Positions 20,303 to 51,219 of a stretch of DNA of 64,000 nt are shown here, one piece after another (positions within the stretch are counted from its first letter, which is position 1; every line of letters starts with the position of its first letter). This DNA comes from Candidatus Latescibacterota bacterium (GTDB lineage Bacteria > Latescibacterota > UBA2968 > UBA8231). The translations under genes were made by a program, and so were the position numbers. The stretch lies in the NCBI GenBank assembly GCA_965217585.1, contig OZ244561.1, forward strand, positions 3,104,001 through 3,168,000. Direction: 5' to 3'. The notes beneath the pieces were generated by a model. It did not search any database. It was given only the letters and a program-made list of their open reading frames with translations, and was not told the DNA's origin.

Positions 20303-21092
20303 ACGCGCGCTGATCACCGGCGGGGCCAGCGGCTTCGGCCTGAGCACCGCCAAGGCCCTGCTCGCCCAGGGTGCCCAGGTCGCCATCGCCGATATCGACG
20401 GCGAAAAACTACGGGCGGCCGACGACGAATTGCACAGCGACCGCGTGCTGGCCCTAGTGCTCGATGTCACCTCGCCGACATCTGTCCAGCAGACCGTAGC
20501 CGCCTGCCAGACGCGCTTTGGGGGCTTGGACGCCCTCGTCAATTCCGCCGGTGTCATCCACTTCGGCTCCTTGGCAGAGACCACCGAGGCGGATTGGGAT
20601 CGGGTCATCGACATTGACCTCAAGGGTGTTTTCCTCTGCTGTCAGGCCGCCGCTCCGCTCCTGCGCCAAAGCGGTGAGCACGGCCGCATCGTCAATATCG
20701 GCTCGGACGTGTCCAAGATCGGCTGCGCGCTGATTGCCTCCTATTGCGCCGCCAAGTTCGGCGTCGTCGGCCTGAGTAAGGCGCTGGCCGGCGAACTAGC
20801 CCCCGCCGGCGTCACCGTCAACTGCGTCTGTCCGGTCGGCGTCTCGACCACCGGCATGGGCCAAGACGTGCTCGCCTACAAACGACAGGCGACCGGTGCG
20901 GCCAACCAAGCGATCCTCGCCGCGACGGCGGTGGACATCCCGCTTGGCCGCAACCCCACCGAGGACGATGTCGTCAACGCCATTCTGTTTTTCCTCGCCG
21001 AAGAATCGTCCTTTTTGACAGGAGTCGCGCTCGATGTCGATGGCGGTCTGCTCAGCACCTCGATCCTGCCCGGTGTTGCCGATGGCCAGTAA
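20292..21092 (+). CDS. SDR family NAD(P)-dependent oxidoreductase
   Basis: TGGASGFG, NSAG, YCAAK (YxxxK), VTVNCVCP, FLTG..L.VDGG. Confidence 0.93.
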   Translation: MKPRRALITGGASGFGLSTAKALLAQGAQVAIADIDGEKLRAADDELHSDRVLALVLDVTSPTSVQQTVAACQTRFGGLDALVNSAGVIHFGSLAETTEADWDRVIDIDLKGVFLCCQAAAPLLRQSGEHGRIVNIGSDVSKIGCALIASYCAAKFGVVGLSKALAGELAPAGVTVNCVCPVGVSTTGMGQDVLAYKRQATGAANQAILAATAVDIPLGRNPTEDDVVNAILFFLAEESSFLTGVALDVDGGLLSTSILPGVADGQ

Positions 21093-33757: not shown

Positions 33758-34561
33758 CTAGGCCGCGTCCACTGGGTTTTGCAGCCGGCCGATCTGGTCT
33801 ATTTCCACGATTACCTCGTCGCCGGCCGCGAGCCACACGGGCGGTTTGCGCGCAAAACCCACGCCCTGCGGGGTGCCGGTGAGGATGACTGTGCCTGGCA
33901 GCAAGGTCGTATCTTGGCTGAGGAACTCGATCAGTTCGGCGACCGTGAAGATCATGTCGCCGGTGGTGTGGTCCTGCATGATCGCGCCGTTGAGAATCGT
34001 GCGGATGCCGAGGGTTTGTGGGTCGGGAATTTCGTCGGCTGTGACCAGCACCGGCCCCAAAGGGCAGAAGGTGTCAAAGCCCTTGCCGCGAATCCACTGG
34101 CCGCCGCCGCCGTGGAGCTGCCACTTGCGGGCCGAGACGTCGTTGGCGCACGTGTATCCGAGTACGTAGCTGAGGGCGTCGGCCTGCGCCACGTTGCGGG
34201 CGGCCTTGCCGATCACCACTGCGAGCTCGCACTCGTAGTCAACTTCCGGCCCGCGGCGACAGCAGGCCGGCAGCAGGATCGGGTCGCCCGGGCCGCAGAC
34301 CGCGCTCGTGGGCTTGGCAAAGACTACGGGCTGCTCGGGTGGCTCGAGGCCAGATTCGGCTGCGTGTTCTCGGTAGTTTAGCCCGATGCAGAAAATGTTG
34401 GTTGGGGCGAGCGGGGCGAGCCGCCTTTTGACGGCCACTTGTTCGCCCATGGGCACTAGTTCTGCGAAGAGATCGCCGGTGAGGACGGAGGCTTGGCCCT
34501 CCTCGGCTTCGAGGCCCCAACGGACGGTGTCACCAGCGTCGATAAAGCGGATGATGCGCAT
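33758..34561 (-). CDS. Fumarylacetoacetate hydrolase family protein
   Basis: CIGLNY.EH, VDYECELAVVIGK, GYTCANDVSAR, GKGFDTFCPLGP, ILTGTP.GVG; AAGGAG RBS before ATG 34561. Confidence 0.93.
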   Translation of the reverse strand: MRIIRFIDAGDTVRWGLEAEEGQASVLTGDLFAELVPMGEQVAVKRRLAPLAPTNIFCIGLNYREHAAESGLEPPEQPVVFAKPTSAVCGPGDPILLPACCRRGPEVDYECELAVVIGKAARNVAQADALSYVLGYTCANDVSARKWQLHGGGGQWIRGKGFDTFCPLGPVLVTADEIPDPQTLGIRTILNGAIMQDHTTGDMIFTVAELIEFLSQDTTLLPGTVILTGTPQGVGFARKPPVWLAAGDEVIVEIDQIGRLQNPVDAA

Positions 34562-34630
34562 GTCTTTCTCCTTTGTTTTTCCAGCACTTGCACAAACCTT
34601 AAGGCAGGGCTGGCAGCCCGTCAAATAACC

Positions 34631-34659
34631 TTGACGCTTGAGGTGGGGCCGCCTATTTT
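34631..34659 (+). promoter_or_regulatory. Candidate sigma70 promoter of the BMC operon
   Basis: TTGACG-17 nt-TATTTT, 40 nt upstream of the aldehyde dehydrogenase start. Confidence 0.6.
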
Positions 34660-34698
34660 CCCCTTCTTAAAATTAAACTCAACGCGAGGGTAAAGAGA

Positions 34699-36111
34699 GT
34701 GCCCCAAAACGTCAGCGAAGAACACGTACGCAAAATAGTCGAAGAAGTGGTGCAGCGCGTCGTCAGCGGCGGGGACGGCAGCGAGGGCGGGGACACTGGT
34801 GTCTTCGCGACGGTCGACGCGGCTGTCCAAGGCGCGACCCGCGCCCAGCAGCAGTTGGTGGCCTTGTCGCTAGAGGAGCGCAAAAAGATCGTCGAGGCCC
34901 TCCGGCAGACGGCGCACGTCCACGCCGAGGAGTTTTCGCGGCGGGCCTTGGCCGAGACGGGCATGGGGCGGTTGGAAGACAAGATCATCAAGCACCAAGT
35001 CGCGGCCGACACCACGCCCGGTGTCGAAGACCTAGAGGCCACTTCGTGGACCGGCGACCACGGGCTGACCGTAGTCGAAATGGCTCCCTACGGGGTCATC
35101 GGCGCGGTCACCCCATCTACACATCCCGTGCCGACGATGGTCAACAACGCCATTTGCATTGTCGCCGCGGGCAACTCGGTCGTCTTCAACGTACATCCGG
35201 CGGGCAGAAAGGTCTCCATGTTCGCGGTGGGCTTGATCAATCAAGCCATCGTCGCAGCCGGCGGGCCGGCCAACTTGGTGACCGCGGTTGAGACGCCGAC
35301 GATTGAGACGGCCAACGAATTGTTCAACCACCCGGATGTCCGCCTGCTGCTGGTAACCGGCGGGCCGGGCGTGGCCAAGGCCGCACTGGGTAGCCCCAAG
35401 AAGGCCATTGTCGCTGGTCCGGGCAATCCGCCCGCGGTGGTCGATGAAACCGCCGATTTGGCCAAGGCCGCGCGCGATATAATCGACGGGGGGGGCTTCG
35501 ACAACAACATTCTCTGCATCGGCGAGAAGCAGGTCTTTGCCGTCGCCTCCATTGCCGACGAGCTCAAGCGGCTGATGGTCCAGTACAATGCATATGAGCT
35601 CGATGCGCGGCAGATCGAGGCCCTCGCGCAGGTGGCCTTTGTCGAAGGGCCGGACGGGCATCTCGCAGCCAACCGCGAGCTGGTAGGACGCGACGCTGCC
35701 GTGCTGGGCGAGCGCATCGACCTCCGGCTCGACTCGTCGCTGCGCGTGCTCATTGGCGAAACCGACGCCAACCACGTTTTTGTGCGCGAGGAGCAGATGA
35801 TGCCCTTTCTGCCGATCGTGCGGGTTCCCAACATCGACCAAGCCATCCGCGAGGCCGTCATCTCCGAGCACGGCTACGGGCACACGGCCGTGATCCATTC
35901 GCGCAACATCGAAAACATGCACAACATGGCCCGCGCCGTAGATACCACTATTTTCGTCAAGAACGGCCCTTCCTACGCTGGGGTTGGCTTGGGCGGCGAG
36001 GGCTTTGGGACGTACTCCATCGCCGGGCCTACGGGCGAGGGCCTGACTTCACCGCGGACTTTTACCCGCCAGCGCCGCTGCGCCCTCGTCGACTACTTCC
36101 GCATCACCTGA
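34699..36111 (+). CDS. CoA-acylating aldehyde dehydrogenase (EutE/PduP family) with N-terminal encapsulation peptide
   Basis: AETGMGR.EDK..K, PYGVIGAVTPSTHP, TGGPGV, AGPGNPP, FDNNILCIGEK (catalytic Cys), EQMMP, HTAVIHS; SEEHVRKIVEEVVQRV peptide. Confidence 0.95.
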   Translation: MPQNVSEEHVRKIVEEVVQRVVSGGDGSEGGDTGVFATVDAAVQGATRAQQQLVALSLEERKKIVEALRQTAHVHAEEFSRRALAETGMGRLEDKIIKHQVAADTTPGVEDLEATSWTGDHGLTVVEMAPYGVIGAVTPSTHPVPTMVNNAICIVAAGNSVVFNVHPAGRKVSMFAVGLINQAIVAAGGPANLVTAVETPTIETANELFNHPDVRLLLVTGGPGVAKAALGSPKKAIVAGPGNPPAVVDETADLAKAARDIIDGGGFDNNILCIGEKQVFAVASIADELKRLMVQYNAYELDARQIEALAQVAFVEGPDGHLAANRELVGRDAAVLGERIDLRLDSSLRVLIGETDANHVFVREEQMMPFLPIVRVPNIDQAIREAVISEHGYGHTAVIHSRNIENMHNMARAVDTTIFVKNGPSYAGVGLGGEGFGTYSIAGPTGEGLTSPRTFTRQRRCALVDYFRIT

Positions 36112-36425
36112 TGCTCTTGGGCCAAGTCAAAGGGCATTTGGTTTCCACGGCCAAGGTCCCGAGCCTCAACGGCAAGAAGCTCTTAGTCGTCGAAATCGCG
36201 TCGGTGCGCGAGCATGGTCTGGTGCTGACGGGGCGGGATATGGTCTGCATCGATGCGGTGCAAGCGGGCAAGGGCGAGCTGGTGATTTTGGTGCAGGGCA
36301 GCTCGTCGCGGATCGCCCCGGACTTGGCCGACGTGCCAGCCGACGCGGTAATCGTCGGGATCGTCGATTCGCTACAGGCCATGGGCAAAGACTTCGACTG
36401 TCGGCAACTGAGCCGCGAAGGATAG
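36111..36425 (+). CDS. BMC vertex (pentamer) protein, EutN/CcmL family
   Basis: MLLGQVKG.LVST.K...L.G.KLL, D.VQAG.GE.V, GSSSR, PADAVIVGIVD. Confidence 0.95.
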   Translation: MLLGQVKGHLVSTAKVPSLNGKKLLVVEIASVREHGLVLTGRDMVCIDAVQAGKGELVILVQGSSSRIAPDLADVPADAVIVGIVDSLQAMGKDFDCRQLSREG

Positions 36426-36428
36426 GCG

Positions 36429-37109
36429 ATGGACGTTGCACCAGCGGCTGGATTGGACCGCAAGCAGATTGAGGCGTTGGTGCGCCGGGTGGTGTACGAT
36501 CACCTGCCCGACGCTCAGCTAGAGCAGGCACCCCCAGCCCCGAGGCTGGTAGTCAATATGTCCGCCCGCCACGTCCACCTCAATCAAGAGGCGCTGGACG
36601 CGCTTTTCGGCGCGGGTGCCGAGCTAACCGTGCAGAAGGCCCTGTATCAGGAAGGAGCTTTTGCCGCCGAGCAGACGGTGTCGGTTTTCGGCCCGCGCAA
36701 GCAGGTGATTCCCAATGTCCGCATCCTCGGCCCATTGCGCGAGTACAACCAAGTGGAGCTGGCCTTTACGGACGCCCGCTTTTTGGGCATTAACGCGCCG
36801 GTGCGGCTCAGCGGTAACATAGAGGGGACGCCGGGCTGCTACTTGGTGGGGCCGGCTGGGGGACTAGAGTTGGATCACGGGGTGATTCGGGCCGCCCGCC
36901 ATGTACATCTAAACCCGGCAGAGGCCGCGTACTATGGGGTCGGCCCGGGGGACTTGCTGCGGCTGGTAGTAGAAGGTGACCAGGGCGGGGTGCTGGAAGG
37001 GCTGATCTGTCGAGTCAGCGAGCGCGAGCGCCTAGAAGTTCACATCGACACGGACGAGGGCAATGCGATTGATTTGGTCCATGCCCGCAAGGTATATTTG
37101 GAGCGTTGA
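36429..37109 (+). CDS. pduL: Phosphate propanoyltransferase PduL with N-terminal encapsulation peptide
   Basis: SARHVHL, VRILGPLR..QVEL..TDA, AARHVHL, HIDTDEGNA; DRKQIEALVRRVV peptide. Confidence 0.95.
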   Translation: MDVAPAAGLDRKQIEALVRRVVYDHLPDAQLEQAPPAPRLVVNMSARHVHLNQEALDALFGAGAELTVQKALYQEGAFAAEQTVSVFGPRKQVIPNVRILGPLREYNQVELAFTDARFLGINAPVRLSGNIEGTPGCYLVGPAGGLELDHGVIRAARHVHLNPAEAAYYGVGPGDLLRLVVEGDQGGVLEGLICRVSERERLEVHIDTDEGNAIDLVHARKVYLER

Positions 37110-37146
37110 ACGCAAAAATCCGCACAATTACTTCAGGAGGTAAGGG

Positions 37147-37707
37147 ATGTCGGATGCAATAGGCATGGTAGAAACGGTGGGGCTGGTCGGGGTCGTCGAG
37201 GCCGGCGACGCCATGGCCAAGGCCGCCAGCGTACAGCTTTTGGGCTGGGACAGAGTCGGCTCCGGCTTGGTGACCGTGTTTTGCTCGGGCGATGTGGCGG
37301 CCGTCAAGTCGGCCGTGGATGCCGGCTCGGCCGCTGCGGCCAAGGTTGGGGAGGTGCATTCGGTGCATGTGATTCCCCGCCCGCACAGCGAGTTGACGGC
37401 CGTCGTGCCCGAGCGCGGCGACAGCGACGACAGCGATGGTCGCGTCCGCGCCTTGGGTCTCATTGAGACGAAGGGGGCCATCGGCGTGATCGAAGCAGCC
37501 GACGCCATGAGCAAGGCCGCCGATGTGGAGGTCGTCAAGCTCCAGGACATCGGTGGCGGGTACATTACCGTCATGGTCAGCGGCGACGTAGGCTCGGTGC
37601 AGGCTTCGGTCAGCGCTGGTGCCGAGGCGGCCGAGCGCGTGGGCGAGCTTGTGTCGCAGCACGTGATTCCCCGTCCCCACGACGATCTCGTCGCGTTGTA
37701 CTTGTAG
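37147..37707 (+). CDS. BMC shell protein with two tandem non-permuted domains
   Basis: Two AxGxxET..DAM.KAA..GDV..V..HVIPRPH units; pore loops RVGSG and DIGGG. Confidence 0.95.
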   Translation: MSDAIGMVETVGLVGVVEAGDAMAKAASVQLLGWDRVGSGLVTVFCSGDVAAVKSAVDAGSAAAAKVGEVHSVHVIPRPHSELTAVVPERGDSDDSDGRVRALGLIETKGAIGVIEAADAMSKAADVEVVKLQDIGGGYITVMVSGDVGSVQASVSAGAEAAERVGELVSQHVIPRPHDDLVALYL

Positions 37708-37723
37708 GTAGAGGAGAGAAATA

Positions 37724-37987
37724 ATGAAAGCATTGGGTATGGTCGAGACCCGCGGTTTGGTCTGCGTCGTCGAAGCCCTCGACGCCATGTTGAAAACCGC
37801 CGACGTGAGCTATGCGGGCCAAAAGCGCGTGGGTAGTGGCCTAATTACCGTGCTAGTCGAAGGCGACGTAGCGGCCGTCAAAGCGGCCGTAGATGCGGGA
37901 GCGCAAGCCGCCCAGCGCATCGGCGAGCTGCGCAGCGTCCACGTGATTCCCCGCCCTACTGAGGGGCTGACAGACCACATTGGTTAG
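37724..37987 (+). CDS. BMC-H hexamer shell protein (EutM/PduA-like)
   Basis: [36 protein letters not shown]. Confidence 0.96.
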
Positions 37988-37991
37988 CTAA

Positions 37992-38441
37992 GTGGCCGAG
38001 GCTTTGCACATCGACGCCCCGGTAGTCACCGGCGATTTGCTCGGGCGCGAGCACAAGGGCGAGCGGACGCTCAGCGTGGCTCCCAGCGCCATCTTGACGC
38101 CGACGGCTTGGGATTACATCCGCCAGCACCGGTTGCAGCTAAGTCGCGGCGAGGCCGTTGCGGCAGCCGCCGACGGCGTTGCGGACGCGGGCCGTTGCGA
38201 GCATCCCGACCGCGCCTGCGGCTGCCAGCACGAGGAATTTGGCTCGGGGTACGTCGAGCCGTCGCGCTGCGGCGATTGCGCCGTCCACCAGCGCAAGAAG
38301 GCGGGGGATCCCGAGGCGAGTTGCGAGGGTTGCAACCGCTACAAGACGCTGTTGCAACAAATCGAGCAGGGCCAAGCCACCGATCCAGAAGCCTTAATTG
38401 AGCAGATCACCGAGCTAGTAATTCACCGGCTGGCAGACTAA
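37992..38441 (+). CDS. BMC-associated Cys-rich hypothetical protein with C-terminal encapsulation-peptide-like helix
   Basis: N-terminal ILTPTAWDYIR domain, 7 Cys (CEHPDRACGC, CGDC, CEGC), DPEALIEQITELVIHRL tail. Confidence 0.82.
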   Translation: MAEALHIDAPVVTGDLLGREHKGERTLSVAPSAILTPTAWDYIRQHRLQLSRGEAVAAAADGVADAGRCEHPDRACGCQHEEFGSGYVEPSRCGDCAVHQRKKAGDPEASCEGCNRYKTLLQQIEQGQATDPEALIEQITELVIHRLAD

Positions 38442-38444
38442 GCT

Positions 38445-39029
38445 ATGGCGGGCGACCCAGCAGTTGGCATGATCGAAGTGCAGGGCGTGGCCGCCGCCAT
38501 TGTGGGTGCGGATGCGGCCTGCAAGGCCGCGGATGTGCAGCTCGCGGGTTGGGCGTCAATCGGCGGCTATACCACGGCCTTTTTCACCGGGTCGATCAGC
38601 GATGTGGCCGCCGCGCTGCAAAGCGGCGAAGAAGCGGCCCGCGGCGTGGTAGAACACGTGGTGGCCGTGCCTCTAAACCAACCCGTTCCCGCCTGCTTCC
38701 ATTTCGTCGATTTTCCGGTCCGTGCCCACAGCGACTTTCCCGCCGGTGCCTTGGGGTTGGTCGAGACGCGCGGCTATGGGGCCCATATTCACACGAACGA
38801 TCAGATGGTCAAGACGGCTGCTGTCGAGGTAATCAACGTGCTGACGGTCCACGACCGCGTGGTGTGTTCGCTGGTCTTGGGAGACGTAGGAGCCGTCACC
38901 GAAGCCATCGCCGTCGCGCAAAAGCTGCTCGCGGGGTGCGAGCGCTTGCTAGGCACGGCACTGATTCCGCAGCCGCGACCAGAGGTTTTGGCTGCATACG
39001 CCGTGCCGATGGGAGGTGGCGGTGTCTAG
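38445..39029 (+). CDS. Divergent two-domain BMC shell protein
   Basis: AVGMIEVQG..DAACKAA and ALGLVETRG..DQMVKTA..GDVGAV..IPQPRP. Confidence 0.9.
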   Translation: MAGDPAVGMIEVQGVAAAIVGADAACKAADVQLAGWASIGGYTTAFFTGSISDVAAALQSGEEAARGVVEHVVAVPLNQPVPACFHFVDFPVRAHSDFPAGALGLVETRGYGAHIHTNDQMVKTAAVEVINVLTVHDRVVCSLVLGDVGAVTEAIAVAQKLLAGCERLLGTALIPQPRPEVLAAYAVPMGGGGV

Positions 39030-40170
39030 CGGGGCGATCGGCATGTTGGAGACGCGCGGCATGGCGTCGCTGATGGCTTCCACCGACGCCATGCTCAAGG
39101 CCGCTGAGGTACACCTCTGTGGTCGGCACGGCATTGGCTCGGGTTGGCTCACCGTAGTAATTGCCGGCCAAGTAGCTGACGTGGAGGCGGCCATTCGCGT
39201 CGGCGAGGTCGAGGCGAACCGCACCGGCGAATTGATTGGCGCGCGAGTGGTGCCGAGGCCGGACACGCGCGCCATGGACGCCATGCCCCACGCAACTGGC
39301 CTCGGTGCCGAACAGGTACGGCCGCAGGCGATTGGCCTGTTGGAGACGCAGGGCCTGACGCCGCTAGTGGCTGGCGTCGATGCCATGCTCAAGGCCGCCC
39401 AAGTGGAGCTAGGGGGTTGGGCTTTCATCGGCGGCGCGCTGTGTCACGCGCCGATCTTTGGCGATGTGGCGGCTGTGCAGACGGCGCTAGAAGTCGGCCG
39501 ACAAGCAGCCGAGCGGATTGGCACTGTGTACGCGACCCTCGTTTTGCCCCAGCCCAGCGAGGGGCTAGGCCCTCTGCTGCCGCCCGCGCCACCGGTCACA
39601 CCGCGCTCCACGGGTGCCTTGGGCCTCATAGAGACCATTGGTTACTCCGCGGTCGTGGGCAGCGCCGACGCCATGCTCAAGGCCGCGGATGTCCAAATCG
39701 AGCGCTTGAGCATCGGCAGCGGCGGGCGGATTGCCGCGCTGGCTACCGGCCAGCTCGACGACGTGCAGGCCGCCCTGCGCGCTGGTGCTGAGGCGGCCAC
39801 GGGCTTGGGGCAGCTCGAAGCCTCGGCTGTAGTCTCTCGGCCCGATCCCGCGCTAGTCGCTCGTTTTGCCACTGCGGCCGAGGGCCTTGGGCCGGGTGCG
39901 CGGCAGGCTATGGGGCTGATTGAGACGCGCAGCACCGTGGCCTTGGTGCGGGCCGTCGATCGGATGCTCAAAGCCGCGGCCGTCGAATACGAAGGGGCCT
40001 ATAAGGTGGGGTACTACTTGACGGCCGCCGTCGTCCGCGGCGATGTCGGTGCCGTGCAGGTCGCCATAGAGGCGGGCCGGCAGGAGGCCGTCGCACACGG
40101 AGAACTGGTCTCGGCCTACGCCATTCCGCAGCCCTACAGCGGCCTCGAAGGCCGCCTGCCGCACGTTTAG
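39022..40170 (+). CDS. Four-domain BMC shell protein
   Basis: Four consecutive BMC domains, each with AxGxxET and D(A/R)MLKAA; GGAGG at 39012-39016 supports GTG 39022 (the ORF track starts at 39016). Confidence 0.92.
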   Translation: MSSGAIGMLETRGMASLMASTDAMLKAAEVHLCGRHGIGSGWLTVVIAGQVADVEAAIRVGEVEANRTGELIGARVVPRPDTRAMDAMPHATGLGAEQVRPQAIGLLETQGLTPLVAGVDAMLKAAQVELGGWAFIGGALCHAPIFGDVAAVQTALEVGRQAAERIGTVYATLVLPQPSEGLGPLLPPAPPVTPRSTGALGLIETIGYSAVVGSADAMLKAADVQIERLSIGSGGRIAALATGQLDDVQAALRAGAEAATGLGQLEASAVVSRPDPALVARFATAAEGLGPGARQAMGLIETRSTVALVRAVDRMLKAAAVEYEGAYKVGYYLTAAVVRGDVGAVQVAIEAGRQEAVAHGELVSAYAIPQPYSGLEGRLPHV

Positions 40171-40184
40171 CGAGGACGCGAAAA

Positions 40185-41357
40185 ATGATTCGGATTGACG
40201 ATGCAGTAATTACCGCTCAGACCTTGGAGGGCCGCCTGTCTGGCGAACGGCAGGTCGAGCTCGGCCCGGGGGCCAAGCTGACGCCCTCGGCGCAGGACTT
40301 TTTGCGCGCTCAAGGCGTTGAGGTTGTGCGTCGATCGGACGGGGAGCCAGCACCTGCCGCGCCCGCCGCGCCCCGGGTCCCGGCCGCTAACGTGGGGGGC
40401 CGCAAGGCATTTGCTGGCATCTTCTGCCCCAACGTCGTCCTTTTCGACCGCGAGAACGAGATCAACCACGCCGAGATGGAGCGCTACATCAACTGGCTGG
40501 TCGAGGTTGGGATCCACGGGCTGTATCCCAATGGCAGCACTGGCGAGTTCGCGCGCTTGTCGCGGGAGGAGCGCCAAGACGTGGTGCGGCTGGTCTGCGA
40601 GGTCAACGCGGGGCGCGTACCTGTACTGGCCGGAGCCAGCGAGGCCAACTTGCGCGACGTGCTCAAGATGGCTGAATACTACGCCTCGCTCGGCGTGGAT
40701 GCCATTGCGCTGATGCCCCCCTATTACTATGAGATTTCCACTGAAAGCCTCTTCGAGTACTTCGCTGAAATCGCCGAAGAATCGCCGCTGGACATCTTGC
40801 TATACAATATCCCGCGATTTACCCAAGAGCTGTCGATAGATCTGATGGAGCGACTCTTGCCCTACGAGCGGATCTTCGGCACCAAGGACTCCAGCCGCGA
40901 CCTGCCGCGGCTGCTCAACACCATGAATCGCTTGCGCCAACAGCGCCCCGAATACGTGGTAATGACCGGTTGCGAGGAGATCGTGTTCCCCTCGGTGCTC
41001 ATGGGCGCCAGTGGGGGCACCATCGCCACCTCGGGCATCGTCCCAGAGGTGATTGTCGAGCTTTATGAAAAGGCCAAAAGCGGCGACATTGAGCGGGCCC
41101 GCGAACTGCAATACCGCATCCTCGATCTCATCAACCTCATGCTCTTAGGCGTCAACTTCCCAGAGGGCTTCAAGACCGGCGTGGCGGCTCGTGGCTTTGA
41201 CGTAGGCCCAGCGCGGGCATCTACTACTGCCGCCGAGCAGGAGTACCTGCTCAAGCTAGAGGCCCAAATCAACTGCGTCCTCGCGGATATGGGCTATCCG
41301 GTGAGCGGCCCCCGCGCCTGCCCGACGACCAACCTGCCGCCGATCGTCGGCCGTTAG
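40185..41357 (+). CDS. DHDPS/NAL-family class I aldolase with an N-terminal BMC-associated extension
   Basis: NGSTGEF, GRVPVLAG, PPYY, LYNIP, GTKDSS (Schiff-base Lys); about 70-aa extension with LTPSAQDFLR and a Pro/Ala linker. Confidence 0.92.
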   Translation: MIRIDDAVITAQTLEGRLSGERQVELGPGAKLTPSAQDFLRAQGVEVVRRSDGEPAPAAPAAPRVPAANVGGRKAFAGIFCPNVVLFDRENEINHAEMERYINWLVEVGIHGLYPNGSTGEFARLSREERQDVVRLVCEVNAGRVPVLAGASEANLRDVLKMAEYYASLGVDAIALMPPYYYEISTESLFEYFAEIAEESPLDILLYNIPRFTQELSIDLMERLLPYERIFGTKDSSRDLPRLLNTMNRLRQQRPEYVVMTGCEEIVFPSVLMGASGGTIATSGIVPEVIVELYEKAKSGDIERARELQYRILDLINLMLLGVNFPEGFKTGVAARGFDVGPARASTTAAEQEYLLKLEAQINCVLADMGYPVSGPRACPTTNLPPIVGR

Positions 41358-42434
41358 ATGGCCCTTGCGGGCGCGCGTGTGTTGGTGGTCGGGGCCGGTA
41401 TCATTGGCCGCTCGACGGCCTACTTCCTCGCGCGGCAAGGCGCGAAGATCGTCCTGCTCGACGAGGGAATCCCCGCTGGCTCGCCCACGAGCCGGGCCTC
41501 TTTGGGCGTCCTCACCCACTGCAACGGCGGCGACAATCCCTACGCCCAGCTTTTCCGCGACGGTCACGCTCTGCACGCTCGGCTGGCCCGCGACTTAGAA
41601 GAAGATATAGACGCAGATGTGGGCTGGCGTCCCCTCGGCGGCATCGAGCTTTTTGCCGACGCATCCCAGATAGAGGAGGTCTGGCGCTTCAACCGCGCGC
41701 GCGGCTGTCGGGTCGAACGGCTCGACGAGCGGGCCTTGCGCGGTGCGGAGCCGGCGTTGGACGGCGGTTGCGAGGGTCTGTATTTTGCCGACGATCACCG
41801 GGTGGATCCCCTCAAGTTGGGCGCGGCGCTTTGGGCGGCGGCCGTACAGCGTGGCGCGTCCGCCGCTTGGGGTGAGCGCGTCTGGCGCATTGCCCAAGAG
41901 GGCGAGGCCGTCGAGGTCGCCACCAGTCGCGGAACCCACCGCGCTGACTTTGCGGTCTTGGCGGCTGGAGCGTGGACCGGCGGCTTGGCTGCGCAACTCG
42001 GTGCCCGCGTCGCGTTGCGCCCGGTGCGGGGCCAACAAGCGCGATTTGCCGGTGCCCCGCTGCGCCACCTAGTGAAGGTAAACGGACGCCACCTAATTCC
42101 AGACGGCGGCGAAACGGTCGTGGGATCGACGATGGAAGAGGTCGGCTTTCGGTTGGAAACGACCCGCGCGGCCGCGGCGGAGTTTGCCTCGGAGGTACGC
42201 TCCGCGCTGGGGAGGTGCTTGCCGCTGTCGCGCCAGCAGGCTGGTCTGCGGCCCAAGCCCCGAGGCGGGCGTCCGCTCATCGGCCCGCTGACGGATGCGC
42301 CGAGGGTTTTCGTGGCCTCTGGGCACTACAAAAACGGCGTCTTATTAGGCCCGATTACCGGCCAGATCGTCGCTCACTGGATCGCCGAGGGAACCCCAGG
42401 GCGCGACATGCGCCGCTTCGCACCCGAGCGTTGA
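41358..42434 (+). CDS. FAD-dependent oxidoreductase, DAO/glycine oxidase (ThiO-like) family
   Basis: VVGAGIIG, LAAGAW, PVRGQ, VGST.E, AGLRP, GHYKNGVLLGP; starts at the base after the aldolase stop. Confidence 0.9.
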   Translation: MALAGARVLVVGAGIIGRSTAYFLARQGAKIVLLDEGIPAGSPTSRASLGVLTHCNGGDNPYAQLFRDGHALHARLARDLEEDIDADVGWRPLGGIELFADASQIEEVWRFNRARGCRVERLDERALRGAEPALDGGCEGLYFADDHRVDPLKLGAALWAAAVQRGASAAWGERVWRIAQEGEAVEVATSRGTHRADFAVLAAGAWTGGLAAQLGARVALRPVRGQQARFAGAPLRHLVKVNGRHLIPDGGETVVGSTMEEVGFRLETTRAAAAEFASEVRSALGRCLPLSRQQAGLRPKPRGGRPLIGPLTDAPRVFVASGHYKNGVLLGPITGQIVAHWIAEGTPGRDMRRFAPER

Positions 42435-42467
42435 ATTCATTGCCACCTAACACAGTTGAGGTTAAAC

Positions 42468-43409
42468 ATGCCATTGCAAAAAGAAGACCTACTCGCCGCG
42501 CTAAACTCGGTTACCTCCATCCCGGTGGTCCCTTTTCGCGGCGGGCAAATCGACTACGAGGCCCACGCCAAGAACATCAACTACTTAATGGAGAACAATC
42601 ACTTAGACGGTGATCGGCCCCGGGTGATTGGTATCGCTGGCACTAGCTTGATCCACCACATTAGCGCGGACGAGCGAGTGCGGCTGTTGGGCTTTACCGG
42701 CGAGCAGATGGGGGGGCGCGGGGTGCTGATGTCCGGGATTGCTCCCAATCCAGTTGGGGATGCCGAGCGGTTGATCGAGCGGGAGGCCGCGCTGGAATAT
42801 CCCCCGGATGTCTATCTCGTCATGCCGCTTACTGGCGTGGCCAATCCAGAGGGCATTTTCGCGTACTACGTGGATTTTGCCGAGCGGTTGGGGCGTTCGT
42901 GCGGGGCCAAGTTGCTCTACTACCTGCGCAACCAAGCCGAGCGCGAGATAGCCGTGCGACTGATGAACGAATCCGAGCACTTCGTGGGGCTGAAGATCGG
43001 CACTACGGTCGAGGACGTTGAGCCGATTGTCGCCGACGTACAGGAGGGAGCTGCGCTGGTGATATGGGGTGTGGGGGACCGTTCGACTGGGCCGGCCGAG
43101 CGCGGCACCAAAGGGCATACGTCGGGGATCAACGTGGCCTTCGCCCGCGCTTCAGACGAGATCAACAACGCCCAGCGCCGAGGCGATTTTGCGACCTCGC
43201 AGCAGATCGAAAACCAGCTCGCGGCCCTAGAGGAAATTCGCTTCCGCAACGGCCGCATGTACAACTACTCGGCTGTGGTCGAGGCCATGCACTTGGGGGG
43301 ATTCAGCGATGTGGATGGCGGCGAGGGCGGTCCGTTCAATCCGCGGGTGTCGGCGGAAGTGGCCGAGGAAGTAGCCGCGGCCATAGCCGACATTGTGGAC
43401 TATCACTAG
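42468..43409 (+). CDS. Divergent DHDPS/NAL-family protein (KdgD-like dehydratase or aldolase)
   Basis: IPVVPF..G.ID, LLYY, FVGLKIG (Schiff-base Lys), GHTSGI; GxxGE loop altered to GIAGTS. Confidence 0.75.
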   Translation: MPLQKEDLLAALNSVTSIPVVPFRGGQIDYEAHAKNINYLMENNHLDGDRPRVIGIAGTSLIHHISADERVRLLGFTGEQMGGRGVLMSGIAPNPVGDAERLIEREAALEYPPDVYLVMPLTGVANPEGIFAYYVDFAERLGRSCGAKLLYYLRNQAEREIAVRLMNESEHFVGLKIGTTVEDVEPIVADVQEGAALVIWGVGDRSTGPAERGTKGHTSGINVAFARASDEINNAQRRGDFATSQQIENQLAALEEIRFRNGRMYNYSAVVEAMHLGGFSDVDGGEGGPFNPRVSAEVAEEVAAAIADIVDYH

Positions 43410-43708
43410 CCTTCGTCGCGCAGCCGCTCTAGATAGGCCGTCCATTCGACGGGGAGCAGGTGCTGCTTTTGGCTGTTGCAGTGCTTGCAGCAAGGCACCA
43501 CGTTGGACTTGGTGGTGCGGCCGCCGCGGATGAGCGGCACGACGTGGTCCATGGTTAGCTCATCGGGCGCAAACGACTGCTGGCAGTAGTGGCATTGGCC
43601 GGCGGCCCGTTTGCGCTTCCACCACTGGGAGCGGCGCAGCATCTTGGCCTTGTTCTTTTCTCGGGCAACGTGTTCGGTGTCGGCTGGGACGAAGTATGTG
43701 TTTTCCAT
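43406..43708 (-). CDS. HNH endonuclease family protein
   Basis: CHYC...LTMDHVVPLIRGG....NVVPCCKHCN..K. Confidence 0.9.
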   Translation of the reverse strand: MENTYFVPADTEHVAREKNKAKMLRRSQWWKRKRAAGQCHYCQQSFAPDELTMDHVVPLIRGGRTTKSNVVPCCKHCNSQKQHLLPVEWTAYLERLRDEG

Positions 43709-43878
43709 GCGAAAGCAAGATAGCGCAGAATGGGCGCAGGACAAATGAACCTTAGCGAAGCCGATACCGGGGCTAAGCTCATAGAAGGATATTCGCCGCA
43801 TGACGAAATACCAGCTTTATATTGCCGAAGTGGGAGAACCTGACCAGAAAGGTGAGGATACCTGAGAGAAGTTGATAT

Positions 43879-44820
43879 ATGACAGACAATGCAAACAAGA
43901 AAATACTAGACCGGGATAAAGCAGCAAACCTCGGAGAAATGATCACAGAGCCACTTGATAGCCTACAAGTCTTAGTAAATTACGGCACTAATCTTGTCCT
44001 CCGATGCTACTATTATGGTTCCAATAAGTCCCTCAAAGACGTCGTAGCATTATTTTCGCTGTTCAAAAATGCCCTCTCGATGGCTGACGCTATCGAAGTC
44101 ATGATGAGACAAGGAGTAATTCGTCCCAGCCAACTGCAACTTCGGTCATTGTTCGAAGTGTCTGTCACGCTTCAGTGGGTCCTGCAGGAATCGGGCGATG
44201 AGCGTGCTAGGGCATATCACGTTGCCAATCTCCGAAGACAACGTCTCTCGGCTCGCCGCGACCTTCCTGGCACAGAAGAGAATGAGGCTTTCCAATACTT
44301 TTGGGATACAGTAGGAGATAGAACCCCCTCGCCGGAGAGGGTGAAGGAAGTACGTGCCCAAATCGCCAATTTGGACAAAGAGCTGTCTGGACCTTCCTTA
44401 TGCGATCTCAATGAAAAATTTGAAACTTTTTATCAAAAGAACGAACGTGAGGAGGATTGGTACAAAATACTCGGTGTACGATCATTCTGGAAGATCGCCA
44501 AGGATATCGGTCGTACTGCGGAGTATGCCAAGATTTACACTTCTGGTTCCGAAGTCATGCACGGCTCTACGTACAGCGGTCAATTAGCTTTTGATGACTC
44601 AGAAATAATCATAGATCTGCTGAGATCGCCTAGAGAAATAGGCTACTCGCTGAGGCTAGCTATGGCGCTGACACTCAAGATGACACGGTCAACGCTTGAT
44701 TACTACAGGCCTGCTGAGGTGGAGAATTTGAAACGGAAGTACCGTGAAGATTGGGCTTCTCCTTTGAGGAGGATACCCGACATCAGGGCAGAAGAATTCA
44801 CGGTCATTTTAGATAGATAG
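43879..44820 (+). CDS. DUF5677-like hypothetical protein (helical, conserved RS.FE and Y..S...H)
   Basis: LRSLFE, IYTSGSEVMHG; markedly lower GC than flanking genes. Confidence 0.65.
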   Translation: MTDNANKKILDRDKAANLGEMITEPLDSLQVLVNYGTNLVLRCYYYGSNKSLKDVVALFSLFKNALSMADAIEVMMRQGVIRPSQLQLRSLFEVSVTLQWVLQESGDERARAYHVANLRRQRLSARRDLPGTEENEAFQYFWDTVGDRTPSPERVKEVRAQIANLDKELSGPSLCDLNEKFETFYQKNEREEDWYKILGVRSFWKIAKDIGRTAEYAKIYTSGSEVMHGSTYSGQLAFDDSEIIIDLLRSPREIGYSLRLAMALTLKMTRSTLDYYRPAEVENLKRKYREDWASPLRRIPDIRAEEFTVILDR

Positions 44821-44850
44821 GCTCTCGTCTAGCTATATAGCACCTGTCGG

Positions 44851-45156
44851 TCAGACGGGTTCATAACGCTGGACGCTGATCTCATTTGCGCGGGCGCGCA
44901 TCTGCGAGGCGTCATACCAAGCCTGCATCCTCAACAGCATGTCCATGCCTACGCCAAATGCCTTCTCTATACGTAGTGCCATCTCCGGTGATAGCGCGGC
45001 GTTGCCATTCAGCAAGTCCGAAAGCGTTGCCCGCCGAACTCCCAGAATCTCGGCTGCTCTCGTCACGTTCAGGCCCAACTCCTCGATGACTTCCGTGCGA
45101 ATAAAGTCGCCTGGATGCGAAGGGGTCATGTTCACTTTGATGCCGTCGGTAGCCAT
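44851..45156 (-). CDS. higA: HigA family antitoxin
   Basis: HPGDFIR, AAEILGVRRATLSDLLNG, SPEMALRIEKAFG, MQAWYD; coupled to higB by TAATG. Confidence 0.93.
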   Translation of the reverse strand: MATDGIKVNMTPSHPGDFIRTEVIEELGLNVTRAAEILGVRRATLSDLLNGNAALSPEMALRIEKAFGVGMDMLLRMQAWYDASQMRARANEISVQRYEPV

Positions 45157-45446
45157 TAGTGGTAGTCCTCCAAGTTCAAGCGGTCTATGTAGCCGTCCTC
45201 TTCTGCAAAGGTGATCCGCCAATTGCCGGATACCGAAATGCTCCATTCGTCCTGCCGGTCACCTGAGAGTCTATGGACGCGCCAGCCACGAGGCGCATCG
45301 GCGATGAATCTGTCCAACTCCTCTGCCAAGATCAGGGCTGTCAAGATCTTGCGCACTCGGTCAACCAAATTGTGTTGCAGGAACCGGGGGTTGTCGTCTT
45401 CGATCAACCGGCGCAATCCTCGGTGGTGGACAGAGCGAATAATCAT
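45156..45446 (-). CDS. higB: HigB (RelE/ParE-fold) toxin
   Basis: MIIRSVHHRGL, PRGWRVHRLSGDR, WSISVSGNWRITF, LNLEDYH. Confidence 0.93.
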   Translation of the reverse strand: MIIRSVHHRGLRRLIEDDNPRFLQHNLVDRVRKILTALILAEELDRFIADAPRGWRVHRLSGDRQDEWSISVSGNWRITFAEEDGYIDRLNLEDYH

Positions 45447-45452
45447 GCTCTA

Positions 45453-45481
45453 AGTGTACGGTAATACCGTTCACCCTACAA
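45453..45481 (-). promoter_or_regulatory. higBA promoter with overlapping palindromic operator
   Basis: Minus strand TTGTAG-17-TACACT, 6 nt before the ATG; palindrome GTGtACGGTA-A-TACCGTtCAC at 45454-45474. Confidence 0.7.
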
Positions 45482-45537
45482 GTCTTCCCACGGATTGTCA
45501 GGAGGTCACCGGGCGTTGGCCGGCTTGCGGGATGGAG

Positions 45538-46566
45538 TCAGCAGCGCTTGCTGATGAATTCGCGGCTCATCCACTGCCCGAGCACTTTCTGCGAGCGGAG
45601 CAGCATCTTCTGGTAAGCGCGCTCTAGGTTCTTTTTGTTTTTTGCGTTGGGCAGGACGTTATAGCGGCCGCGGATTTGGGTGATGGCGCGGCTGCGTGGA
45701 TCGACGGCGAGGGTGAGGATGCGGTGGCGGTGACCTTTGCCGTCTTCTACGCCGAGGGACCAGATCGAGGTACTGCCGTTGCGGCAGCTCTTGGCGTAGG
45801 TATAGACGCAGTGGCCCATTTCGCCGCCCTCGGCCCCAGTTCGTGGTTGGAGAGCAACTCCTTGATGCTCCAGGTGAGGGTCTCGCCGAGTTGCTTGTCC
45901 TCCTGCTTCTGCTCGAATTCGCCGATACTCGAAGCTCCCCAAGACATGGGCCGGACGCGGCTCTTTTTGCCACCAGCTCTGTCTGGCTCGGCGTCTGCAT
46001 CGGGCGGCAGCACCTGCCGAGCCAGCGCTTCGTGCCACTCGTCAACTTGGCGCAACAGCTTGGGGATGCTGCGGCTCTTCATTGAAAAGTTCGGCTGCGC
46101 AGGTGGCCTTTGCTCGACGCCACCGCCGGGCAGGACGATTTGCTGCGGCACGTATTTCTGATCGTGGATAAAATCGACGATGGGGCCGACGTGGGCCGGA
46201 TCGAGCATGGGATTGTTAGCAAAAAACAGGATCGCGGTGGACCAAAAATCCTCGTTTTCAAACGACTGGCCCAGCCGGGTGCCAAGCACCGCCCGCGCCA
46301 ACGCCGGACTACCTCCTTGCCCCAAGACTTGACCCCAGCGCAAGGCGTGGGCTATGGAGAGGTCGTCGGGGGCCGCGAGGAAGCAGTGGGCCGACTTCTT
46401 GTTCAAGGCAACGGGGAGGTCGGCGGTGCGGATATTCTGCCCCGAGCCGATGTATTTGAACCACGCTTGGTGCAAACCGGCTTCTGGCATCTGCGAGGTA
46501 AAAAAGGTTGGCGCGGTTGTGGGCTCGCTCTATCTCGCTGCGGACATTTCTTTTGCGGTGCGCCAT
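45538..46566 (-). pseudogene. Frameshifted PcfJ-like domain gene
   Basis: ORF 45747-46490 (…W.IKELLS..EL) continues in another frame as AEG.EMGHCV.TY...QIRGRYN (PcfJ motif); one base missing in a G run near 45835; a likely original N-terminus (MAHRKRN…) is out of frame at 46566. Confidence 0.7.
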
Positions 46567-49890: not shown

Positions 49891-51219
49891 ATGCTAGTCG
49901 AAAATGCCCTGCGCTTTTTGAGCTTGGCCGACGCCAACGTGCGCTTCGTGCTGATCGGCTCCCTGCTGATCGGCGCGACCGGGGGGTTGCTGGGGTCGTT
50001 TGCGGTGTTGCGGCGGCGCAGCCTCGTCGGCGACGCGCTGGCGCACGCGGCCCTGCCCGGGGTGGCGTTGGCCTATCTGTGGACTGGGAGCAAGGCCCTG
50101 CCGGTGCTGCTGACGGGCGCGGCGATTTCCGGGGTGCTCGGCGTGTTGGTGATGCAGTTCATCATCAACTTTACCCGCATCAAAGCGGATGCGGCCATCG
50201 GCATTGTGCTGTCGGTATTTTTTGGCGTGGGGATCGTGCTGTTGACCCACGTTCAGCGGGTCGGCACGGGCAATCAGAGCGGCTTGGACAAGTTCCTCTT
50301 TGGGCAAGCCGCCTCACTGGTGGATGACGACCTGCGCGTAATGAGCGTGCTGGCGGGCTTCATCATCCTCGCGGTGGCCTTGTTTTTTAAGGAGTTCAAG
50401 GCGCTGATTTTCGACGCAGACTTTTTGCAGACGCTCGGCTACTCGTCCCGCTGGATCGACGCCTTGCTGATGGGGTTGATTGCGCTGACGGTGATCGTGG
50501 GCTTGCAGGCTGTCGGCGTGGTGCTGATTGCGGCCATGCTCATCACGCCCGCCGTGGCGGCCCGCTTTTGGACCGAGCAGTTGCACAAGATGGTGCTGCT
50601 CGCCGCTGCTTTCGGGGGGTTGTCGGGGGCCGTCGGCACCTTCATCAGCTCCTTGGTGCCGCGGATTCCCACCGGCCCGGTGATGGTACTCATCGCCACC
50701 TTGTGCTTTGTGGTCTCGGCTCTTTTTGCGCCTCGGCGAGGGGTGTTGGCGCGGTGGCGCAGGCAGCGGCACAACAGCCGCCGCGAGAGCCGACAGCACT
50801 TTTTGCGCGCCTGCATCGAGCTGCAAGAGAAGCTGGGGACGGGCCGCTCCTTGGCCGTGGAAGAGCTGGCCATTGAGATGGGCCTGTCGCCGGACCGGGT
50901 CAAACGCCTTGGGCGGCGGCTCGCCGAGAAGGGACTAGTCTCCGATCAAAGTGGGCATTTCACCCTGACGGCCCTAGGCGCGGAGGAAGGGCTTTTCGTG
51001 GTCAAATCACACCGTTTGTGGGAGCACTATTTGTATTATCGGGCCATACTCGACGCCGATCACGTGGATCGGCCCGCCGACGAAGTCGAGCACTTGCTGA
51101 CGCCGGAAATCATCGCCCAGCTAGAGGACATCCTCCAGCGCGAGCAAGGGCTGGACCCGGCCCGGATCGTCAATATCCACGGCACCGGCAGCCACTACCG
51201 CCGGGGAGGCCGCGAATGA
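49891..51219 (+). CDS. Metal ABC permease (TroC-like) fused to a C-terminal DtxR-like domain
   Basis: GDALAHAALPG, ADAAIG, LFGQAA, GLQAVGVVL; C-terminal wHTH plus HRLWEHYL...ADEVEH. Confidence 0.92.
   Translation: MLVENALRFLSLADANVRFVLIGSLLIGATGGLLGSFAVLRRRSLVGDALAHAALPGVALAYLWTGSKALPVLLTGAAISGVLGVLVMQFIINFTRIKADAAIGIVLSVFFGVGIVLLTHVQRVGTGNQSGLDKFLFGQAASLVDDDLRVMSVLAGFIILAVALFFKEFKALIFDADFLQTLGYSSRWIDALLMGLIALTVIVGLQAVGVVLIAAMLITPAVAARFWTEQLHKMVLLAAAFGGLSGAVGTFISSLVPRIPTGPVMVLIATLCFVVSALFAPRRGVLARWRRQRHNSRRESRQHFLRACIELQEKLGTGRSLAVEELAIEMGLSPDRVKRLGRRLAEKGLVSDQSGHFTLTALGAEEGLFVVKSHRLWEHYLYYRAILDADHVDRPADEVEHLLTPEIIAQLEDILQREQGLDPARIVNIHGTGSHYRRGGRE

Follow-up and report, generated by a model that had tools for sequence, protein, structure and literature searches.

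An aldehyde-oxidising metabolosome locus of a Candidatus Latescibacterota bacterium with a class I aldolase as its likely added signature enzyme

Metabolosomes of the PVM (microcompartment of Planctomycetes and Verrucomicrobia) and PVM-like types are the fucose and rhamnose organelle of Planctomycetes and Verrucomicrobia. In the parts of Axen et al. 2014 (PMC4207490) and Sutter et al. 2021 (PMC8217296) that deal with PVM loci, class II aldolase is the only signature enzyme named, and it is likewise the only enzyme named for PVM and Latescibacteria bacterial microcompartments (BMCs) in the corresponding parts of these sources and of Kamke et al. 2014, Youssef et al. 2015, and Orellana et al. 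2021. The part of the Sutter et al. catalogue that covers metabolosome types without an obvious signature enzyme lists MUF2 (a metabolosome of unknown function, MUF) among them, and under the naming rule as worded in the pertinent part of Axen et al. 2014, a locus without an alcohol dehydrogenase is a metabolosome whose core is incomplete (MIC) and not a MUF. Satellite ethanolamine utilization (EUT) modules, which consist of EutABC and EutL, extend another BMC type (Sutter et al. 2021, section 10, PMC8217296). The present study examined an operon of 11 genes at positions 34699-43409 of a 64,000-nt stretch (the window) of contig OZ244561.1 in assembly GCA_965217585.1, a Candidatus Latescibacterota bacterium with a genome of 7.32 Mb that is 94.6% complete. 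This operon is the main locus of a fragmented, PVM-related, aldehyde-oxidising metabolosome, and a class I aldolase of the DHDPS/NAL family encoded in it (aldolase 1) is the most likely added signature enzyme. The organelle module is made up of the nine genes from the acylating aldehyde dehydrogenase (AldDH) through aldolase 1; the last two genes, for a DAO-family flavoenzyme and a second, weakly matching DHDPS-family protein (DHDPS-like 2), are probably bystanders and not part of the organelle.

Gene families were assigned with Pfam and NCBIfam models, and scores are given in bits against curated cut-offs (Table 1). An initial annotation of the window had described 11 tightly packed genes forming a metabolosome operon, and both statements were borne out: all 11 genes are present in the families it listed, all lie on the plus strand with intergenic gaps of -14 to +37 nt, and both shell folds are represented (PF00936 in five genes, PF03319 in one). 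The metabolosome core consists of AldDH and the phosphotransacylase PduL, both of which score above their cut-offs and begin, as read from the translations, with an amphipathic helix of the encapsulation peptide (EP) type, followed by a Gly/Ser linker in AldDH and by a Pro/Ala linker in PduL. Eleven BMC-domain matches and four matches to the vertex protein BMC-P were found genome-wide. The locus itself encodes neither acetate kinase nor alcohol dehydrogenase, as the initial annotation had also stated; the genome's single acetate kinase gene lies elsewhere.

The relation to PVM-type loci is apparent from the genome as a whole. The PVM signature of PF00596 within the locus is absent from the operon and is found at the genome level only, where the sole class II aldolase gene, which encodes a C-terminal linker and EP-type helix, is situated 3.29 Mb from the operon and about 0.8 kb from a gene for a 97-aa hexamer-type shell protein (BMC-H). 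The statement that no class II aldolase is present therefore stands for the operon and falls for the genome and the organelle, since an EP-bearing copy is present at this satellite site. The raised BMC-P count of PVM-type loci is also found, with a tandem triplet elsewhere on the contig in addition to the one gene in the operon. Other likenesses to PVM are the AldDH and PduL core, the placing of acetate kinase elsewhere, and the occurrence of aldolase 1 homologues within PVM-type loci, or next to them, in Verrucomicrobiota and Planctomycetota. In one of these loci (L083), the homologue stands in a single string with a tandem-domain shell protein (BMC-T), PduL, BMC-H, BMC-P, AldDH, and class II aldolase, and the locus studied here is related to such loci, contrary to the earlier view that it matched no characterised BMC type. 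It differs from PVM in that class II aldolase is encoded outside the main locus and a class I DHDPS-type aldolase holds the signature position, in the addition of a four-domain BMC protein and a Cys-rich protein, and in the phylum concerned.

Two genomes in which aldolase 1 is a satellite show a different arrangement, one (G054) with a main locus of acetate kinase, BMC-P, AldDH, BMC-H, PduL, and an EP-bearing class II aldolase, and the other (G031) with class II aldolase beside BMC-P and AldDH in the main locus. The C-terminal EP-type helix of class II aldolase was seen here and in three other BMC-bearing genomes. Genus g9 (genera and families are given under our own labels) belongs to the same family and has BMC domains in none of its three genomes, and its class II aldolase orthologues, 60-62% identical, end directly after the catalytic domain without an EP; the loss of the EP where the organelle has been lost amounts to a natural experiment. 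A further satellite shell gene in the genome under study (G000:C1:1549528-1550268; L049:6529-7269) encodes a 149-aa BMC-H with a basic Rho_N/HeH-like C-terminal tail and directly follows rpsR.

In aldolase 1, a Pro/Ala linker joins a 50-aa N-terminal domain to the catalytic barrel, and the extension in front of the barrel amounts to 75 residues. The Schiff-base Lys, the Tyr, and the GxxGE motif that define the DHDPS/NAL class I aldolases are present, and G117-S-T-G-E121, Y207, and K234 are invariant in all eight aligned homologues. None of the NCBIfam subfamily models that match the protein reaches its cut-off, and its best solved relatives are the Picrophilus KDG/KDPG aldolase 4uxd (KDG, 2-keto-3-deoxygluconate; KDPG, 2-keto-3-deoxy-6-phosphogluconate) and Escherichia coli YagE (2v8z, 3n2x), at 126-128 bits. 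Aldolase 1 resembles these enzymes in its conserved Schiff-base Lys, Tyr, and GSTGE, and in the recurrence of sugar-acid dehydratase neighbours; it differs from them in its N-terminal extension and in the C-terminal EP of its homologues, a feature missing from the best-scoring solved chains (289-343 residues).

A survey of the phylum found BMC domains in 152 of 168 genomes, and aldolase 1 orthologues (E <= 1e-86) in 85 of the 168, this one included. Of these carriers, 84 are BMC-positive, the sole BMC-negative one being a 58%-complete metagenome-assembled genome (MAG). The orthologues of families f1, f3, and f4 (79 genomes) possess the N-terminal domain, while those of f13 and f14 (six genomes) are about 50% identical, lack it, and have instead a linker and an amphipathic C-terminal helix; a BMC-T gene lies directly downstream of the aldolase in all four f13/f14 loci that were fetched. 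Outside the phylum, a profile scan returned homologues with 44-53% identity in Verrucomicrobiota, Planctomycetota, Omnitrophota, and Armatimonadota, as well as a few records titled Bifidobacteriaceae or Dongiaceae. Of the 48 loci from other phyla that hold a homologue, most of them in Verrucomicrobiota and Planctomycetota, 45 encode a C-terminal extension of at least 20 residues, 45 (46 by eye) match a fixed helix pattern within their final 26 residues, and in 32 a BMC-domain gene lies no more than 600 bp away; the pattern is weakly specific, as the C-terminus of DHDPS-like 2 would also fit it, and EP-type tails are marked by a poorly conserved linker before the helix. The two tail-less loci (L112 and L121) are also without a shell neighbour. 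The 186-aa BMC-T of the operon is the protein of the window most closely related to the BMC-T encoded after the aldolase in other phyla (32-64% identity, tblastn). Aldolase 1 itself has no classical EP, ending without a helix and bearing the 50-aa domain and Pro/Ala linker at its N-terminus instead.

Aldolase 1 is accordingly a member of a cross-phylum clade of BMC-linked class I aldolases and, to judge from its sequence and genomic surroundings, looks like organelle cargo and an aldehyde generator. The earlier proposal that it supplies the aldehyde is credible, given its invariant catalytic residues and the fact that its clade is EP-bearing and located beside shell genes across phyla. The arrangement is comparable with that of the satellite EUT modules, in which an enzyme and a dedicated BMC-T likewise stand off the main locus, add a substrate, and are sometimes merged with it, an aldolase and BMC-T being so placed in 32 of the 48 loci; it differs in having a class I aldolase where the EUT modules have ethanolamine ammonia-lyase and in having a BMC-T of the plain tandem type. 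In the open full texts we found no published description of a DHDPS-family enzyme in a BMC or of an aldolase and BMC-T module; the supplements of the catalogues, which may show one, were outside the scope of the search.

Aldolase 1 and the Cys-rich protein share a homologous N-terminal domain (35% identity over 48 aa, E 5e-9), of which the genome contains no further copy. Searches of the domain and of the Cys-rich protein returned a 15-bit zinc-ribbon hint as the only result from Pfam at E values up to 10, and scores of at most 0.84, to be read as leads only, from a protein atlas. The Cys-rich protein is built of three parts, the 50-aa domain, a conserved Cys motif, and a conserved EP-type helix at the C-terminus; C78, C93, C96, C111, and C114 are invariant and C69 is nearly so, and full-length orthologues are limited to family f1, where they occur in 65 of 75 genomes. 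An adaptor model, by which aldolase 1 would enter the shell through N-terminal pairing with the EP-bearing Cys-rich protein, was considered and finds no support in co-occurrence: the 13 profile matches in family f3 all fall on the N-terminus of the aldolase itself, with no Cys-rich gene found apart from it, and genus g11 has the Cys-rich gene without aldolase 1. A complex prediction for the two N-terminal domains scored 0.00, which is evidence neither way. In every complete locus examined, the proteins with the N-terminal domain are encoded beside the 194-aa BMC-T (T194) and the four-domain shell protein, which suggests that this pair may contain the domain's docking partners. Proteins of the four-domain kind form a stable family: among the matches listed, most of 120 clusters measure about 370-396 aa and match the query over nearly its full length, and a few are shorter.

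Evidence for setting the flavoenzyme and DHDPS-like 2 apart from the organelle came from their distribution. No targeting extension is visible in the translation of either protein. The DAO-family enzyme is best matched by the ThiO model TIGR02352 and by solved glycine oxidases (about 106 bits); it differs from ThiO in scoring 174.3 bits against an equivalog cut-off of 250.8 and in lying outside a thiamin context. DHDPS-like 2 retains invariant K180 and Y155/Y156 and has an equally invariant A-G-T-S-L-x-H-H in place of GxxGE; its true start is likely at 42468, giving a protein of 313 aa, the length of most of 120 homologues among the matches listed. When five genomes of families f3, f13, and f14, all with aldolase and BMC genes, were searched, DHDPS-like 2 was found in none and DAO only as paralogues with 32-34% identity in two, and the 48 aldolase loci of other phyla yielded no match to either protein.

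The neighbourhoods of DHDPS-like 2 were analysed in the 54 most divergent of 80 returned loci (L154-L207). The gene order aldolase 1-DAO-DHDPS2 was seen in 23, and in three (L163, L173, L179) the four-domain gene runs into DAO-DHDPS2; two (L171, L183) have the order FAH-DAO-DHDPS2-HNH without a BMC gene, one ends at a contig edge, and the other 25 are of a Poribacteria type without DAO or a BMC gene nearby. In the two BMC-less loci, FAH directly adjoins DAO, which is 49-52% identical to the DAO of the operon. Locus L183 maps to genus g9, to which L171 is also taken to belong, and DHDPS-like 2 occurs in all three g9 genomes. Since DAO and DHDPS-like 2 are kept where BMC genes are missing, and are missing from other lineages with aldolase and BMC genes, they dissociate from the organelle, and the simplest reading is that the nine-gene organelle module sits inside an older FAH/DAO-DHDPS2/HNH neighbourhood. 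Among the Poribacteria loci (L170-L207), the DHDPS-like 2 homologue is about 60% identical and has a fixed neighbourhood in 16-17 of 23 clustered loci, in which genes for an amidohydrolase, a phosphoribosyltransferase, and an HD-domain protein are followed, in divergent orientation, by those for DHDPS-like 2, a canonical DHDPS, and an EPSP-synthase-family protein.

The recurrence of the gene order in other genomes, which had been suggested as a check on the locus, was assessed in 39 fetched loci with aldolase 1, a locus being counted as full when it had all 11 genes on the same strand in the order seen here, with identity >= 44% and coverage >= 70%. Its closest relatives are MAGs whose titles name Latescibacterota or, for some, Gemmatimonadota. 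The full order is kept in 27 of the 39 loci at 44-100% protein identity, and a 28th (L027) falls under the threshold for the Cys-rich gene only. Seven loci are satellites made up solely of the trio of T194, four-domain protein, and aldolase 1, and the remaining four are short contigs, each with part of the gene set. The divergent FAH-family hydrolase gene on the left flank was found in 23 of the 27 full loci and the convergent HNH endonuclease gene on the right boundary in all 27. Two loci (L003:3900-8260 and L025:4290-6965) have an insert of about 4.3 kb in mid-operon, between the Cys-rich gene and T194, which in L025 holds a gene for an 891-aa leucine-rich-repeat (internalin-like) protein. 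The single promoter reported upstream of the operon did not hold up: the match in question agrees with the sigma-70 consensus at nine of 12 positions, and three such matches were observed in the region against 1.8 expected by chance, so the match is no evidence of function. A promoter and terminator scan of the locus returned nothing above chance.

Table 1. Positions of the operon genes, flanking features, and related genes. Plain numbers are window positions; the prefix C1 marks positions on the genome contig.
Feature	Position	Strand	Assignment and remarks
MR_MLE acid-sugar dehydratase and short-chain dehydrogenase/reductase (SDR)	19172-21092	+	Pfam MR_MLE_C 183.9 bits, adh_short 187.1 bits; 14 kb upstream
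FAH-family hydrolase, divergent left flank	33758-34624	-	Pfam FAA_hydrolase 257.9 bits
Sigma-70-like promoter match	34631-34659	+	9/12 consensus positions
Acylating (CoA-dependent) AldDH	34699-36111	+	NCBIfam PRK15398 653 bits, cut-off 403
BMC-P vertex protein	36111-36425	+	Pfam EutN_CcmL 84.1 bits
PduL-type phosphotransacylase	36429-37109	+	Pfam PTAC 222.7 bits; NCBIfam PRK15070 225.4 bits, cut-off 209
Tandem-domain BMC-T, 186 aa	37147-37707	+	Pfam BMC, 2 stretches
BMC-H, 87 aa	37724-37987	+	Pfam BMC 94.2 bits
Cys-rich protein, 149 aa	37992-38441	+	Without Pfam family
Tandem-domain BMC-T T194, 194 aa	38445-39029	+	Pfam BMC, 2 stretches
Four-BMC-domain shell protein Q384, 384 aa (382 from the homologues' start)	39016-40170	+	Pfam BMC, 4 stretches, 255.5 bits
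Aldolase 1, DHDPS/NAL family	40185-41357	+	Pfam DHDPS 199.5 bits, residues 76-362
DAO-family FAD oxidoreductase, ThiO-like	41358-42434	+	Pfam DAO 193.7 bits
DHDPS-like 2	42456-43409	+	Pfam DHDPS 39.7 bits (weak match)
HNH endonuclease, convergent, conserved right boundary	43406-43801	-	Pfam HNH_5 54.6 bits
Acetate kinase, single	C1:4691984		
BMC-P tandem triplet	C1:5126021-5126816		
Class II aldolase, sole genomic copy	C1:6431076-6431798		PF00596; C-terminal linker and EP-type helix

The idea of a 2-keto-3-deoxy sugar acid as substrate, also raised in the initial annotation, fits the recurrent neighbours of the aldolase. Across 51 homologous loci, the commonest neighbour clusters were MR_MLE dehydratases (14), SDRs (10), GlcD-like oxidase subunits (five), and GlcF/LdhH-like oxidase subunits (five), and one neighbour in family f3 passes the galactonate dehydratase cut-off. 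Galactonate and gluconate dehydratase models match the MR_MLE protein of the window under their cut-offs, and this protein and its adjoining SDR may possibly supply the 2-keto-3-deoxy sugar acid, a link that is weak. The orthologues of the f14 and f3 neighbour genes in the bacterium's own genome are scattered, none of them near BMC genes. L-fuconate dehydratase was considered as the identity of the f14 neighbour dehydratase and was not supported by its solved relatives, the best of which is the unannotated 2hzg. The FAH-family hydrolase flanking the operon has 2,4-didehydro-3-deoxy-L-rhamnonate hydrolase as its best NCBIfam model, at 223.8 bits under a cut-off of 500. With the dehydratases of three relatives as tblastn queries, the genome (G000) was found to hold many MR_MLE paralogues, at least ten distinct sites at E <= 1e-20, an abundance that fits a sugar-acid lifestyle.

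In the route that we propose, a sugar dehydrogenase and an enolase-superfamily dehydratase outside the shell would convert a sugar by way of the sugar acid to a 2-keto-3-deoxy sugar acid, which aldolase 1 would cleave inside the shell to pyruvate and an aldehyde. The likeliest aldehydes would be L-lactaldehyde, a candidate because it would equal the class II aldolase product, or glycolaldehyde, a candidate because it would suit the glycolate-oxidase-like neighbours. AldDH would then convert the aldehyde to an acyl-CoA, PduL the acyl-CoA to an acyl-phosphate, and a kinase would recover ATP, with the class II aldolase as another enzyme that would feed this core. The pair of aldolase and BMC-T may have started out as an accessory satellite, the form in which it is common in Verrucomicrobiota and Planctomycetota, and have been built into the main locus in this lineage, where the C-terminal EP would have been replaced by the 50-residue N-terminal domain that travels with T194 and the four-domain shell protein. 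DAO, DHDPS-like 2, and the divergent FAH gene would form a separate cassette within which the organelle module is situated, the first two being co-transcribed neighbours that the organelle would not need.

Taken as a whole, a PVM-related metabolosome with aldolase 1 as cargo and with DAO and DHDPS-like 2 in a separate cassette is the explanation that we regard as probable, if well short of certain. A number of observations weigh against it. The substrate of aldolase 1 and the direction of its reaction are ones that we infer, and lactaldehyde is not singled out, since the neighbour dehydratase is not L-fuconate-dehydratase-like by its solved relatives. No alcohol dehydrogenase or other NAD-recycling enzyme is encoded among the 11 genes, no genome-wide search for one having been made. 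Aldolase 1 is not universal, as it is missing from most BMC-bearing f4 genomes and from loci L163, L173, and L179, where no aldolase 1 gene stands between the four-domain gene and DAO. Genus g11 (G107, G108) has a BMC operon with AldDH, PduL, the Cys-rich protein, BMC-T, the four-domain protein, and DAO, and neither of its two genomes has aldolase 1, DHDPS-like 2, or class II aldolase. DAO follows the shell genes in every BMC-bearing version of the locus seen in family f1, and here its start codon abuts the stop codon of aldolase 1, a position that could mean a functional link to the organelle. Relatives of the entire locus are covered, at 90-99% identity, by contigs that come from RNA libraries of three studies; since the FAH and HNH genes on the opposite strand are covered too, carry-over of DNA is possible and the contigs do not demonstrate transcription of the operon. 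None of the RNA-library contigs bridges the aldolase/DAO junction by 31 letters on each side.

The rival readings differ chiefly in the role that they give to DAO and DHDPS-like 2. The initial annotation had placed both in a linear chain, in which DAO would turn an amino or a hydroxy acid into a 4-hydroxy-2-oxo acid and aldolase 1, DHDPS-like 2, or both would cleave it to pyruvate and an encapsulated aldehyde, all three serving the organelle. The contiguity and common orientation of the three genes, with gaps of 0 and 21 nt, speak for this chain, as do the position of the DAO-DHDPS2 pair after aldolase 1 in 23 of the 29 Latescibacterota-type loci that contain the pair and the character of DAO-family enzymes as amine or amino-acid oxidases. 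It is nonetheless unlikely: neither protein has a targeting extension, the f3, f13, and f14 genomes keep aldolase and BMC genes without DHDPS-like 2 (0/5) and with at most DAO paralogues (2/5), the 48 loci of other phyla have no match to either, and both are retained together with FAH in the BMC-less genus g9. The same dissociation from BMC genes counts against a hydroxyproline-type route, by which DAO would be a D-hydroxyproline dehydrogenase, DHDPS-like 2 a pyrroline-4-hydroxy-2-carboxylate deaminase that forms alpha-ketoglutarate semialdehyde, and AldDH the enzyme that oxidises it. Among well-known pathways, no other than hydroxyproline catabolism is known to pair a DAO-family flavoenzyme with a DHDPS-family enzyme and yield an aldehyde, and the retention of Lys and Tyr in DHDPS-like 2 beside an altered GxxGE would suit a chemistry other than that of an aldolase. 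Against that stand the absence of any match to the proline-racemase-family epimerase PF05544 in the 94.6%-complete genome, the better scores of DAO with glycine oxidases, and the Poribacteria loci, in which DHDPS-like 2 lies beside canonical DHDPS and EPSP-synthase-family genes without a DAO; we consider this route the least probable of all.

A slim chance, below that of the linear chain, is left to DAO as the aldehyde source in its own right, in which case a ThiO- or sarcosine-oxidase-like enzyme would convert glycine, sarcosine, or another secondary amine to glyoxylate or formaldehyde for AldDH and PduL, and the aldolases would be optional. We retain this amine-oxidase reading because of genus g11: DAO follows the shell genes there too, in the absence of either aldolase and of DHDPS-like 2, and a dimethylglycine oxidase is encoded 3 kb upstream of the g11 operon (L208:422-2977, from G107; 792 bits to 1pj5). 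The adjacency of dimethylglycine oxidase comes, however, from one fetched locus; moreover, DAO bears no EP, is still found next to FAH and DHDPS-like 2, with 49-52% identity, where BMC genes are missing, has no orthologue in the other BMC lineages tested, and scores under the ThiO family cut-off. Were DAO the signature enzyme, the locus would represent an amine-fed, oxygen-dependent metabolosome of an undescribed kind, one that also employs a new targeting domain at the N-terminus and a shell protein of four domains. Still less probable, ahead of the hydroxyproline route only, is a cytosolic aldolase 1 that stands beside the shell genes through synteny, its N-terminal domain being regulatory or for oligomerisation. 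That the domain matches no known family and that the gene is missing from some BMC operons would agree with such a role, but EP-type tails mark the clade in f13 and f14 as well as in 45 of the 48 loci from other phyla, the only other genomic copy of the domain belongs to a protein with an EP-type C-terminus that is encoded inside the shell-gene block, and 84 of the 85 genomes with orthologues are BMC-bearing.

Other observations concern genes elsewhere in the window. On the minus strand, positions 28261-30906 encode an 881-aa protein in which Peptidase_M28/DUF4910 is fused to a C-terminal aminoglycoside 3-N-acetyltransferase-family domain (147 bits), an unusual combination. On the plus strand, positions 49891-52493 hold two adjacent ABC-3 metal-transporter permease genes, each with a C-terminal DtxR-type metal-binding/dimerisation domain (Fe_dep_repr_C), which adjoin genes for a ZnuA-family binding protein and a DtxR/FeoA regulator. 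Just after the operon, a patch of lower G+C content (43879-46490; 0.537 vs about 0.60-0.65) contains genes for a DUF5677 protein and an Xre-type HTH protein and an unassigned open reading frame of 247 aa, and is possibly a small islet of mobile or defence character.

DAO and DHDPS-like 2, which gave the locus its most exotic look, probably lie outside the organelle, and this corrects the earlier picture of its signature enzymes. In the part of the Sutter et al. catalogue concerned (PMC8217296), "no obvious signature enzyme" is entered for many metabolosome types, and aldolase 1 is a concrete candidate for one. The exchange of a C-terminal peptide for an N-terminal domain in aldolase 1 is a natural experiment, and the presence of four BMC domains in a single chain is of interest for shell engineering. 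Verrucomicrobiota and Planctomycetota are major degraders of algal polysaccharides. The aldolase and BMC-T module is common beside the PVM-type organelles of these two phyla, so that sugar acids in oxidised, non-phosphorylated form may enter the organelle in addition to sugar phosphates.

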